DNA of 10,810 nt from a virus (IMGVR_UViG_2531839446_000011:1-10810); one strand, 5' to 3'. Counted from the first letter of the stretch, positions 215 through 2,686 are shown. A program made the numbers and translations. The notes: generated by a model from the sequence alone, not told the origin.

Positions 215-2686
215 ATGAGTAAAGTCTTTATTTGCGCCGCCATTCCGGACGAACAGGCAATAAAGGAAGAAGGTGCAGTCGCTGTAGCCACTGCCATTGA
301 AGCCGGTGATGAATGTCGCGCCCGCGCAAAATTTCACTGGCAATTCCTGGAACATTATCCGGCTGCTCAGGACTGCGCTTATAAATTTATTGTCTGCGAG
401 GATAAACCTGGCATACCCCGCCCTGCCCTCGATTCATGGGATGCTGAATATATGCAGGAAAACCGCTGGGATGAGGAGTCTGCTTCTTTTGTCCCGGTTG
501 AGACTGAATCCGATCCGATGAACGTCACTTTTGACAAGCTGGCCCCTGAAGTACAGAACGCTGTCATGGTTAAGTTCGACACATGTGAAAACATCACCGT
601 TGATATGGTTATTAGCGCACAGGAATTGTTGCAGGAAGACATGGCAACATTCGACGGACATATCGTTGAAGCGTTGATGAAAATGCCAGAAGTTAACGCC
701 ATGTATCCGGAGCTTAAGTTGCACGCCATTGGGTGGGTTAAGCATAAATGTATTCCTGGTGCTAAATGGCCCGAAATTCAGGCAGAGATGCGCATCTGGA
801 AAAAACGTCGCGAAGGTGAACGCAAGGAAACCGGAAAATACACGTCTGTTGTTGATCTCGCCCGCGCCAGAGCCAATCAACAGTACACTGAAAATTCAAC
901 AGGAAAAATCAGCCCGGTCATTGCTGCCATTCATCGCGAATACAAGCAGACATGGAAAACACTGGATGACGAACTGGCCTACGCTCTCTGGCCTGGTGAT
1001 GTGGATGCCGGAAACATTGACGGCAGCATCCATCGCTGGGCAAAAAATGAAGTTATCGACAACGGCCGCGAAGACTGGAAGCGTATCTCGGCATCAATGC
1101 GCAAACAGCCTGATGCCCTTCGCTACGACCGCCAGACTATTTTTGGCCTTGTCCGTGAACGTCCGATCGACATTCACAAAGATCCCGTAGCACTGAACAA
1201 ATATATCTGCGAATACCTGACGACAAAGGGCGTGTTTGAGAATGAAGAAACAGACCTGGGCACTGTTGATGTTCTCCAGTCATCAGAAACACAAACTGAT
1301 GCAGTGGAAACTGAGGTATCTGATATCCCAAAAAATGAAACCGCGCCGGAAGCTGAACCATCTGTAGAGCGTGAGGGGCCGTTCTACTTCCTCTTCACCG
1401 ACAAGGATGGCGAAAAATACGGTCGCGCAAACAAACTTTCTGGTCTGGATAAGGCGCTGTCTGCTGGGGCTACTGAAATCACGAAAGAAGAATATTTCGC
1501 CCGCAAAAACGGTACATACTCAGGTTCACAACAAAATACTGGTGCATCTGACACGACCGCACAACCAGGGCCGGTAAAAGTTACCGCTGACGAAGTAAAC
1601 AAAATTATGCAGGCAGCCAATATCAGCCAGCCTGACGCCGATGAACTGCTTGCAGTATCACGTGGTGAATTTGTTGCAGGGATTAGCGACCCGAATGATC
1701 CGAAATGGGTGAAGGGGATTGAAACCCGCGATTCTGTGAACCAGAACCAGCAAGAAACGGAACAGAACGACCAGAAAGCGGAACAAAACAGCCCAAATGC
1801 GTTACAAAACGAGCCAGAAACGAAACAGCCTGAACCAGTAGCGCAACAAGAACAGGAAAAGATCTGCACCACCTGCGGTCAGAGCGGTGGCGGCAACTGC
1901 CCTGATTGTGGCGCGGTGATGGGCGACGCAACATACCAGGAAACATTCAATGAAAAAAATCAGGTCGAATCTCAGGAAAAAGATCCGGAAGAAATGGAAG
2001 ACTCTGAACATCATCACAAGGAGGACGCTGGCAATGATCACTATCACGATAGCGATGGTGAAACTGGCGAGACGACAAATACCTTAATTAAGGCGAACGA
2101 TCATCATAATCTCACATCCACCAGCAGAGCGGGGATTCATCTGATGATCGACCTTGAAACCATGGGAAAAAATCCCGATGCCCCGATTATCTCAATAGGT
2201 GCAATATTTTTCGATCCGCAAACCGGAGATATGGGACCGGAATTTAGTAAGACTATCGATCTGGAAACTGCTGGCGGAGTCATTGATCGGGACACCATTA
2301 AATGGTGGCTTAAACAATCACGCGAAGCGCAATCTGCCATTATGGCCGATGAAATCCCGTTAGATGATGCACTGTTACAATTGCGGGAATTTATCGACGA
2401 AAACTCCGGTGAATTTTTTGTTCATGTCTGGGGAAATGGAGCCAACTTCGACAACACGATTTTGCGCCGTTCATACGAACGGCAGGGGATCCCCTGCCCG
2501 TGGCGTTACTACAACGATCGCGATGTACGCACAATCGTTGAGCTGGGGAAAGCCATAGACTTCGATGCCAGAACGGCTATTCCATTCGAAGGTGAGCGCC
2601 ATAATGCACTTGATGACGCCCGTTACCAGGCAAAATACGTTTCAGCTATCTGGCAAAAACTGATCCCGAGTCAGGCTGATTTTTAA
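215..2686 (+). CDS. exodeoxyribonuclease VIII (RecE)-like prophage protein with C-terminal DEDDh (DnaQ-like) 3'-5' exonuclease domain
   Basis: 823-aa ORF with GAGG about 8 nt upstream of the ATG. The C-terminal ~180 aa carries the three DEDDh exonuclease motifs: MIDLETMG (Exo I), WGNGANFDNTIL (Exo II), ERHNALDDARYQAKY (Exo III). The middle segment DADELLAVSRGEFVAGISDPNDPKWVKGIETRD and the CTTCGQSGGGNCPDCG zinc-ribbon-like motif resemble RecE-family proteins as I recall them. Position upstream of xis-int matches the lambda exo slot. Confidence 0.8.
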   Translation: MSKVFICAAIPDEQAIKEEGAVAVATAIEAGDECRARAKFHWQFLEHYPAAQDCAYKFIVCEDKPGIPRPALDSWDAEYMQENRWDEESASFVPVETESDPMNVTFDKLAPEVQNAVMVKFDTCENITVDMVISAQELLQEDMATFDGHIVEALMKMPEVNAMYPELKLHAIGWVKHKCIPGAKWPEIQAEMRIWKKRREGERKETGKYTSVVDLARARANQQYTENSTGKISPVIAAIHREYKQTWKTLDDELAYALWPGDVDAGNIDGSIHRWAKNEVIDNGREDWKRISASMRKQPDALRYDRQTIFGLVRERPIDIHKDPVALNKYICEYLTTKGVFENEETDLGTVDVLQSSETQTDAVETEVSDIPKNETAPEAEPSVEREGPFYFLFTDKDGEKYGRANKLSGLDKALSAGATEITKEEYFARKNGTYSGSQQNTGASDTTAQPGPVKVTADEVNKIMQAANISQPDADELLAVSRGEFVAGISDPNDPKWVKGIETRDSVNQNQQETEQNDQKAEQNSPNALQNEPETKQPEPVAQQEQEKICTTCGQSGGGNCPDCGAVMGDATYQETFNEKNQVESQEKDPEEMEDSEHHHKEDAGNDHYHDSDGETGETTNTLIKANDHHNLTSTSRAGIHLMIDLETMGKNPDAPIISIGAIFFDPQTGDMGPEFSKTIDLETAGGVIDRDTIKWWLKQSREAQSAIMADEIPLDDALLQLREFIDENSGEFFVHVWGNGANFDNTILRRSYERQGIPCPWRYYNDRDVRTIVELGKAIDFDARTAIPFEGERHNALDDARYQAKYVSAIWQKLIPSQADF

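Follow-up and report, generated by a model that had tools for sequence, protein, structure and literature searches.

A predicted DEDDh exonuclease domain on a RecE-like scaffold in the YdfE-family protein of lambdoid prophages

Introduction

What is the function of a phage protein that occupies the genomic place of RecE and shares the middle of RecE, but ends in an exonuclease domain of another kind? This question is raised by a 10,810-nt stretch of viral DNA (IMGVR_UViG_2531839446_000011:1-10810; hereafter the window, meaning the whole of that stretch), in which one open reading frame (ORF), 215-2686 on the plus strand, encodes a protein of the YdfE family. The initial annotation, made from the sequence alone, had read the product as a RecE-like recombination protein in which a DEDDh 3'-5' exonuclease domain replaces the nuclease of the lambda Exo type.

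By its sequence and modelled fold, the C-terminal part of the protein (module D) falls within the DEDDh (DnaQ-like) 3'-5' exonuclease superfamily and within Pfam family PF16473, and its activity is predicted on that basis. The rest of the protein retains the middle of RecE, without the other parts that define this recombinase and without its partner RecT. As to function, we tentatively favor, as a serious candidate still short of probable, a DexA-like exonuclease acting at 3' ends of DNA, delivered by its N-terminal scaffold during lytic growth and working without a dedicated annealase. Its polarity, its DNA substrate and its biological role are what we infer below, together with the timing of its expression. 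The picture of known systems is left unchanged by these findings. They nevertheless bear on a gene found in about two-thirds of complete Escherichia coli genomes, often in several copies, and they present the N-terminal and middle region of RecE as a movable scaffold that also bears, without RecT, a nuclease of predicted opposite polarity, which offers a way to study the scaffold itself.

The C-terminal Exonuclease Domain

Module D matches PF16473 (Rv2179c-like 3'-5' exoribonuclease domain) over amino acids (aa) 642-813 with an E-value of 8.4e-67 and 224.7 bits, against a cut-off of 27, and the match spans positions 2-177 of the 177 positions of the model. The general RNase_T exonuclease model gives a weaker match overlapping the same region. 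All three motifs expected of an exonuclease of this superfamily are present: Exo I as DLE (D646/E648), Exo II as NFD (D746) and Exo III as HNALDD (H796...D801, H-x4-D). The initial annotation had recognized these DnaQ-type motifs in the last ~180 aa, and each of them lies where it was placed and is conserved in the family. D646, E648, D746 and H796 are invariant in two family alignments, one of 14 members including T4 DexA and one of 60 sequences, the latter made of representatives only 40-52% identical to the window protein; D801 is invariant among the 14 and at least 90% conserved among the 60.

The AlphaFold2 model of aa 626-823 (mean predicted local distance difference test score, pLDDT, 91; predicted template modeling score, pTM, 0.87) adopts an RNase H-like alpha/beta fold typical of DnaQ-type enzymes, and thus both the profile search and the predicted structure place the domain in an exonuclease family, as the initial annotation had anticipated. 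A Foldseek search with this model retrieved 138 Protein Data Bank (PDB) chains at E <=0.001. The top match is T4 DexA (8KEL; E 8e-11, TM-score 0.72), and further matches include RNase T, a DnaQ domain, oligoribonucleases (Orn), the CBASS Cap18 exonuclease, 3'hExo and ERI3. T4 DexA also ranks first in a search of PDB sequences with phmmer (E 6e-6). A polarity opposite to that of RecE can fairly be read from this modelled fold.

Matches to the DEDDh family were found in 1633 phage records. Phage Eeyore encodes a stand-alone 190-aa homologue, 58% identical to module D, in the same slot, directly before the excisionase and integrase genes (xis-int). In the window protein itself, M644 is a possible internal start that would give a stand-alone domain, but the G-rich stretch ahead of it is weak. 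Stand-alone exonucleases of the Rv2179c/DexA family, 36-46% identical to module D, are also encoded by Vibrio phage 24 and Acidovorax phage ACPWH (loci L008 and L009). Their genes lie directly downstream of the phage DNA polymerase gene, or one small gene further, and their products may act as trans-acting proofreaders.

Comparison with DexA, Rv2179c and EcD

By both sequence and fold, the nearest solved structure to module D is that of T4 DexA (exonuclease A; PDB 8KEL/8KEN), which is likewise phage-encoded. D7, E9, D119, H186 and D191 of DexA correspond to D646, E648, D746, H796 and D801 of the window protein. The two differ in their setting: DexA is a stand-alone protein of 227 aa from a virulent phage, ~23% identical and with extra loops, whereas module D forms the last 180 aa of an 823-aa protein of a temperate phage. 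In this alignment of only ~23% identity, W152 of DexA, reported to take part in the recognition of 5-hydroxymethylcytosine (5hmC), aligns to the Tyr of WRYYNDRD, and the region of D169 falls in a gap.

Rv2179c of Mycobacterium tuberculosis, the founder of PF16473, belongs to the same Pfam family, the model of which is matched by module D over its full length, but it is not among the top PDB sequence or fold matches of module D. Rv2179c is a small stand-alone chromosomal exoribonuclease, reportedly described as such by Abendroth and colleagues in 2014.

EcD ("HREX") is a stand-alone DexA homologue of E. coli that digests 5hmC-modified T4 DNA and protects cells from T4; its exonuclease catalytic residues are reported to be fully conserved (PMC12153337). 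EcD is treated as a protein in its own right, and its termini, given by the cloning primers, are MIDTET and TIPETYD, compared with MIDLET and SQADF in module D. Because these termini differ, EcD is not the C-terminal domain of the window protein. MIDTET was found in one protein among the homologue matches, the C-terminus of which differs from that of EcD.

An Intact Orthologue of ydfE

The ORF is complete, as first called: it encodes 823 aa from an ATG preceded by GAGG 9 nt upstream, its end coordinate includes the stop codon, and the same frame is annotated at the same length in RefSeq and in phage records. It is, by sequence, an intact orthologue of ydfE (b1577) of the Qin cryptic prophage of E. 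coli K-12. The first 256 aa are 98% identical to K-12 YdfE, and the same genes, dicB-ydfD, lie upstream. The K-12 gene, after which the Pfam families YdfE_N and YdfE_C are named, is a pseudogene, truncated by IS2 after ~256 codons; the RecE-like linker and the exonuclease domain are missing from it, whereas the window gene is complete.

The architecture is already known. YdfE_N (PF27430), YdfE_C (PF27432) and PF16473 are listed in precomputed form on homologues of 88-92% identity, so that the arrangement is already recorded in Pfam, and it is reflected in the names given to the gene by NCBI; the assignment of YdfE_N and YdfE_C to the window protein was made via these tables and the identity to K-12 YdfE. 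A match to phrog_2082 runs end to end over the 823-aa protein. At the DNA level the gene is 97.8% identical to E. coli genes annotated "exonuclease" or "3'-5' exonuclease", and thousands of genomes carry it with little change: among complete E. coli genomes, 3537 of 5426 contain a match that covers at least 80% of the gene, and genomes with any match carry it at a median of 2 places, with a maximum of 10. The E. coli copies are annotated as "exonuclease", "3'-5' exonuclease" or "3'-5' exoribonuclease domain-containing protein", and the gene is called "exodeoxyribonuclease VIII" or "exonuclease" in phage records. The widespread name "exodeoxyribonuclease VIII" calls for caution, as it is borne by proteins of this type without the nuclease and the partner of RecE. 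No published study of a YdfE-type exonuclease protein was found in the literature searched.

Table 1. Coordinates of the ORF, its modules and motifs, and neighboring features in the window.
Feature	Position (nt)	Strand	Basis or remark
ydfD-like lysis gene, 3' end, last 39 codons + stop	3..122	+	37/39 identical to the C-terminus of K-12 YdfD
YdfE-family exonuclease ORF, 823 aa	215..2686	+	intact orthologue of K-12 Qin pseudogene ydfE
Module A, YdfE_N, aa 1-260	215..994	+	dN/dS 0.07-0.14
Module B, YdfE_C, aa 261-450, homologous to RecE middle from ~residue 278	995..1564	+	dN/dS 0.22-0.44
Module C, RecE-like linker, aa 451-640: conserved motif, Q/E/P-rich stretches, zinc ribbon, acidic His-rich tail	1565..2134	+	dN/dS 0.53-0.74
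Cys4 zinc-ribbon-like motif CTTC-x7-CPDC, aa 551-565 (C551/C554/C562/C565)	1865..1909	+	RecE counterpart CNAC...CPDC
Acidic His-rich stretch EHHHKEDAGNDHYHDSD, aa 598-614	2006..2056	+	homologous RecE stretch EHPHNENAGSDPHRDCSDE
Module D, predicted DEDDh 3'-5' exonuclease domain, DexA/Rv2179c family, aa 641-823	2135..2683	+	PF16473, motifs, AlphaFold2 fold
Catalytic codons of module D	D646 2150-2152; E648 2156-2158; D746 2450-2452; H796 2600-2602; D801 2615-2617	+	
Excisionase-like gene (DUF4224), immediately downstream of the ORF	2745..2948	+	PF13986, E 1.7e-15; same position in relatives
Tyrosine integrase gene	2948..4030	+	PF00589 and integrase N-terminal and central domains
tRNA-Ser 3' fragment, 62 nt, attachment-site core next to int	4039..4100	-	100% identical to tRNA-Ser after int in E. 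coli L002

Relationship to RecE

K-12 RecE (exonuclease VIII of the Rac prophage) consists of an N-terminal Exonuc_VIII domain (PF06630, aa 2-178), a long middle and a PD-(D/E)XK nuclease domain (PF12684, aa 615-850). The central RecE-like motifs pointed out in the initial annotation are real: aa 262-625 of the window protein align to RecE 278-591 with 37% identity (BLASTP, E 4e-56), most strongly from ~aa 476 on, and at the DNA level homology to recE is limited to nt 1425-1856 of the gene (74.5% identity). Both proteins share the motif SRGEFVxGISDPNDPKWVKGI, a Cys4 zinc-ribbon-like motif and an acidic His-rich tail. The Cys4 motif gives only weak matches to Pfam zinc ribbons (DZR, E 0.0099) and lies in an otherwise low-complexity, weakly constrained linker. 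The acidic His-rich linker that had drawn attention is indeed found just before the exonuclease domain, but has nothing special to the fusion: RecE carries the homologous EHPHNENAGSDPHRDCSDE, so that the stretch is best regarded as inherited with the RecE-type module, and it belongs to the least constrained part of the protein. The homology to RecE stops a few residues short of module D, which is placed where RecE carries its PD-(D/E)XK nuclease. The genomic slot is likewise that of recE in Rac, at the end of the early-left operon, with no other large gene before xis-int.

Beyond this shared middle and slot, the protein lacks each of the features by which RecE is defined. It scores 264 bits with the RecE equivalog model NF007259, the cut-off of which is 1269, and matches only positions 271-602 of 877. 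Pfam searches did not find PF12684 in the window protein, whereas K-12 RecE matches it at E 4e-28; PF06630 was not found in aa 1-262, even at E <=10. In the same searches aa 1-262 and 256-479 gave no matches, and aa 463-642 gave only marginal zinc-ribbon matches. There is no recT downstream, and the predicted polarity is opposite. The label "RecE-like recombination protein" therefore finds no support. Moreover, the RecE nuclease domain (residues 564-866) alone replaces full-length RecE genetically and suffices for recombination, and only ~28 residues at its start (to ~RecE 591) are common to the window protein. Since the sufficient domain lies mostly outside the shared stretch, nearly all of what the two proteins share is without a known recombination role.

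With lambda Exo (Red-alpha), the resemblance is limited to a rough early-left map position. Lambda Exo is folded differently and its partners are Bet and Gam, neither of which is present in HannyBb, a related phage with a complete genome; tblastn searches with lambda Exo, Bet and Gam gave nothing below E 0.05 in the window or in that genome.

Annealase Genes at DEDDh Loci

The initial annotation had suggested looking for a RecT-like gene upstream of the window. The gene that precedes the ORF is the lysis gene ydfD, not recT, and xis-int lie downstream. The same situation prevails in relatives. By tblastn, no gene for RecT, Bet or a Rad52-like protein was found in the available sequence of any of 13 loci with a DEDDh head (the window, L001, L002, the complete 45-kb HannyBb genome or L005, L011, L012, L013, L015 and L018-L022), whereas a recT-family gene lies directly downstream in all four loci with a PD-(D/E)XK head (K-12 Rac, L016, L017 and L025), a tally that is small and phylogenetically narrow, a single-protein scan of species genomes having given only 8 loci. 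The complete genome of HannyBb contains no match to RecT, Bet or Gam by tblastn, and no annealase of any family appears in its deposited annotation or in PHROG scans of its unnamed early-left genes.

The most telling case is L012, in which recT is gone together with the PD-(D/E)XK head. This locus has a Rac-type left arm (sieB, kilR, ydaE and the RecE N-terminus) that leads into a DEDDh head, and the head runs straight into the DUF4224 xis gene and int. From its sequence, L012 looks like the product of an intragenic crossover by which the RecE nuclease, recT and the remainder of the Rac left arm were lost.

Different Heads on the Same Scaffold

The protein encoded at L012, P0123 (805 aa), combines the N-terminus of RecE (100% identical over aa 1-200; PF06630), the RecE middle and a DEDDh domain 98% identical to that of the window protein. 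Natural hybrids of this kind, in which the RecE N-terminus (PF06630) is joined via the shared linker to a DEDDh head, occur at L012 6001-8418 (P0123) and at L011 3672-6113. A combination of YdfE_N and YdfE_C with a PD-(D/E)XK domain is seen in P0140 and at L025. In P0137, P0149, P0152, P0180 and P0232 (locus L028 5001-7226), YdfE_N and YdfE_C are followed by a C-terminal domain of ~270 aa. This P0149-type head bears the PHROG label "exonuclease" (phrog_7838/2489), and sub-threshold Rad52_Rad22 matches, centered on KKSLTDAxKKALSLLGF, were obtained in five of five proteins (best E 0.0026). It shows no similarity to the RecE nuclease or lambda Exo (hhalign probability <1%) and has no PDB sequence match. 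Although the sequence evidence is weak, the P0149-type head is probably a Rad52-like annealase, and given the Rad52_Rad22 signal its PHROG label may be wrong. At L028, a Sipho_Gp157 gene follows the gene for this protein. In P0130 (L026/L027 5001-7109), YdfE_N and YdfE_C are joined to another C-terminal domain, of ~260 aa (phrog_26058), which has neither a Pfam match nor a PDB sequence match; xis-int follow.

A broader interpretation, which we consider rather unlikely, is that the N-terminal region of RecE and YdfE forms a general delivery platform for exchangeable heads that process DNA ends, the DEDDh version being an annealase-independent route. Such a platform would bear a 5'-3' PD-(D/E)XK nuclease used with RecT, a Rad52-like annealase, a 3'-5' DEDDh exonuclease and at least one further domain. 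The DEDDh route would then remove 3' tails, thereby steering breaks toward or away from the host RecBCD and RecA, or would attack the DNA of competitor phages, and head swaps would give a direct experimental handle on the role of the RecE N-terminus. Neither the exchange of heads on this scaffold nor a DEDDh head traveling without an annealase was encountered in the literature searched; they offer a modest, usable lead on the role of the N-terminus of RecE.

Module Boundaries and Selection

Four modules were defined by local comparison with representatives of 50%-identity clusters, and the ratio of nonsynonymous to synonymous substitution rates (dN/dS) was computed for each of them against five full-length orthologues (Table 1). 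Module D yields 0.19-0.32. Modules A and D are under purifying selection, and module C is the least constrained. The E. coli orthologue at L002 is nearly identical in A, B and D but has a dS of 0.15 in module C, and this divergence confined to one module marks C as a recombination joint as well.

Within a variable region, aa 388-432 (window 1376-1510) form a conserved island, GPFYFLFTDKDGEKYGRANK...EITKEEYFARK, which is kept in distant YdfE-type proteins with the consensus VERxGPFY...GRANK.

Operon Context and Expression

In the PL-type early-left (dicBF) operon of Qin/mEp460-type lambdoid prophages, no other large gene separates this one from xis-int. The order dicB-ydfD, the gene for the 823-aa protein, xis and int recurs in the functional phage mEp460, in phage HannyBb and in E. 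coli chromosomes; in K-12 the order is dicB-ydfD-ydfE-...-intQ. The K-12 dicBF operon includes ydfA, ydfB, ydfC, ydfD and ydfE, and is driven by the lambda-PL-like promoter dicBp, which is repressed by the CI-like protein DicA; the operon is turned on by the antirepressor Rem, and a subpopulation of cells also turns it on spontaneously (PMC10448788). The same arrangement is described in mEp460 as a functional phage (PMC10448788). A promoter scan of the 214 nt upstream of the gene (nt 1-214) found no promoter-like site on the plus strand. Because the operon is repressed and the gene has no promoter-like site of its own in this interval, we infer that it most likely acts early in lytic growth and is not expressed in most lysogens.

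Proposed Function and Alternatives

The function that we tentatively favor would proceed as follows. Lifting of a DicA-type repressor, or infection, would allow transcription through dicF-dicB-ydfD into the exonuclease gene. In the C-terminal domain of the product, two Mg2+ ions would be held by D646, E648, D746 and D801, with H796 as the general base. Starting from a free 3'-OH, the domain would remove nucleotides 3' to 5', its most likely substrate being single-stranded or frayed DNA, as for T4 DexA. The long N-terminal scaffold, which in other phages also carries the PD-(D/E)XK nuclease of RecE and probably a Rad52-like annealase, would guide module D to the same ends or partners. The protein would not be one half of an exonuclease-annealase pair of the RecE/RecT type and would act alone or with host functions. 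As an outcome, the 3' tails of breaks or recombination intermediates would be trimmed, or DNA would be broken down to nucleotides. DNA is favored over RNA as the substrate because the other heads of the scaffold act on DNA and because some stand-alone relatives adjoin DNA polymerase genes. Should its behavior resemble that of DexA or EcD, the domain could be relevant to the breakdown of host DNA or to competition between phages.

Several observations weigh against this proposal. The founder of the family, Rv2179c, is an exoribonuclease, so that the substrate could be RNA. The 13 DEDDh loci come from closely related prophages and are not independent samples, and the exclusion of Erf-type and Sak4-type annealases depends solely on a single complete phage genome, through its annotation and the PHROG scans of its early-left genes. 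With a median of two copies of the gene and many prophages per genome, an annealase could be supplied in trans. The structure model of the scaffold, which left out the island at aa 388-432, gave no informative structural analogue. Finally, Northern blots detected no transcript into ydfE in K-12, where the gene is a pseudogene cut by IS2 (PMC10448788).

Among other explanations, the protein could be an inter-phage defense nuclease that degrades the 5hmC DNA of a competitor, like EcD/HREX, or the genomes of RNA phages, like ISG20-like proteins; we regard this as unlikely, if worth keeping in view. The protection from T4 afforded by EcD gives it a precedent (PMC12153337), as do the prophage-encoded bacterial DEDDh exonucleases with auxiliary domains (ISG20-like) that defend against RNA phages (PMC13344964). 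The retention of the gene, often in multiple copies and with intact catalytic residues, in 3537 of 5426 E. coli genomes is also in its favor, and protection from phage infection is reported for dicB, a neighbor in this operon (PMC6832061). However, the gene belongs to a repressor-controlled operon and the 214 nt before it contain no promoter-like site for it, so that most lysogens should not express it. Of the DexA residues linked to 5hmC, W152 aligns to Tyr and D169 lies in a region that falls in an alignment gap, the termini of EcD differ from those of module D, and the match found by PADLOC is only marginal (E 0.017). Furthermore, the sequences of the ISG20-like proteins are said to differ from those of other defense DEDDh domains, and the screen was restricted to proteins of <500 aa (PMC13344964). 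A 3' exoribonuclease like Rv2179c that trims or degrades host or phage RNAs during lytic growth seems to us distinctly unlikely. It draws on the name of the Pfam family, on the "3'-5' exoribonuclease" label given to many copies by PGAP and on the fold neighbors that follow DexA, namely RNase T, 3'hExo, ERI3 and the oligoribonucleases. Nevertheless, the nearest solved relative by sequence and structure is a DNA exonuclease, DexA, the other heads of the scaffold act on DNA, and the stand-alone relatives in Vibrio phage 24 and Acidovorax phage ACPWH adjoin phage DNA polymerase genes.

The model proposed in the initial annotation, in which 3'-5' resection takes the place of the 5'-3' resection by RecE and promotes phage recombination with a RecT-like annealase nearby or in trans, has in our view little chance of being right. 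The protein does share the slot and the central scaffold of RecE, and this scaffold otherwise bears recombination heads (PD-(D/E)XK with an adjacent RecT, and the probable Rad52-like annealase); other prophages of the genome could supply RecT or Bet in trans, and T4 DexA takes part in intron homing, which is a double-strand-break repair process (PMC12153337). Yet no RecT, Bet or Rad52-like gene accompanies the DEDDh head in the 13 loci, including the complete HannyBb genome, recT was lost along with the PD-(D/E)XK head in L012, and the recombination-sufficient part of RecE (564-866) is all but absent, with ~28 residues shared. Besides, Redbeta and similar annealases are loaded onto the 3' overhang that 5'-3' exonucleases produce (PMC11611040), an overhang that a 3'-5' exonuclease would destroy. 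That the gene is a mosaic relic without selected function, a by-product of recombination in the shared linker carried along with xis-int, is scarcely credible. Module C is indeed a weakly constrained recombination joint, P0123 and similar hybrids have the appearance of simple crossovers between prophages of the Rac and Qin types, and the K-12 copy is a pseudogene; but thousands of genomes, as well as plaque-forming phages, retain the complete reading frame of 823 aa, modules A and D have dN/dS values clearly below 1, and the catalytic residues are conserved across the family. A DexA-like exonuclease acting on DNA 3' ends without a dedicated annealase thus remains the function that we favor, with the reservations given above.

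Other Features of the Window

Beyond int, the similarity to the E. coli chromosome ends at the tRNA-Ser fragment (Table 1), and no complete tRNA was found in the window by ARAGORN. Effector and tail genes follow on the opposite strand, from 4814 on. The window thus spans an attachment-site (att) core, flanked by the int end of one prophage on one side and by a tail end of phage DNA on the other, which points to tandem prophages or to a circular or permuted form of the phage; E. coli chromosomes show the same gene order.

Two genes for type III secretion effectors, 4814-5383 (-) and 5449-6339 (-), separate the att core from the tail fiber genes, one NleF-like (PF16809, caspase inhibitor) and the other an NleH/OspG-type kinase (PF22303), in a region with a GC content of 0.34-0.40. 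These genes point to a prophage of an attaching-and-effacing pathogen. The tail fiber gene, 6710-8021 (-), is split into two overlapping ORFs in different frames, 7671-8021 for the N-terminal domain and 6710-7732 for the collagen repeats and the C-terminus of the fiber, and the collagen-repeat region is GC-rich (0.64). The gene for tip attachment protein J (8755-10783, -) is likewise broken into at least three ORFs in different frames. The broken state of these two genes suggests a decaying prophage or sequence errors.

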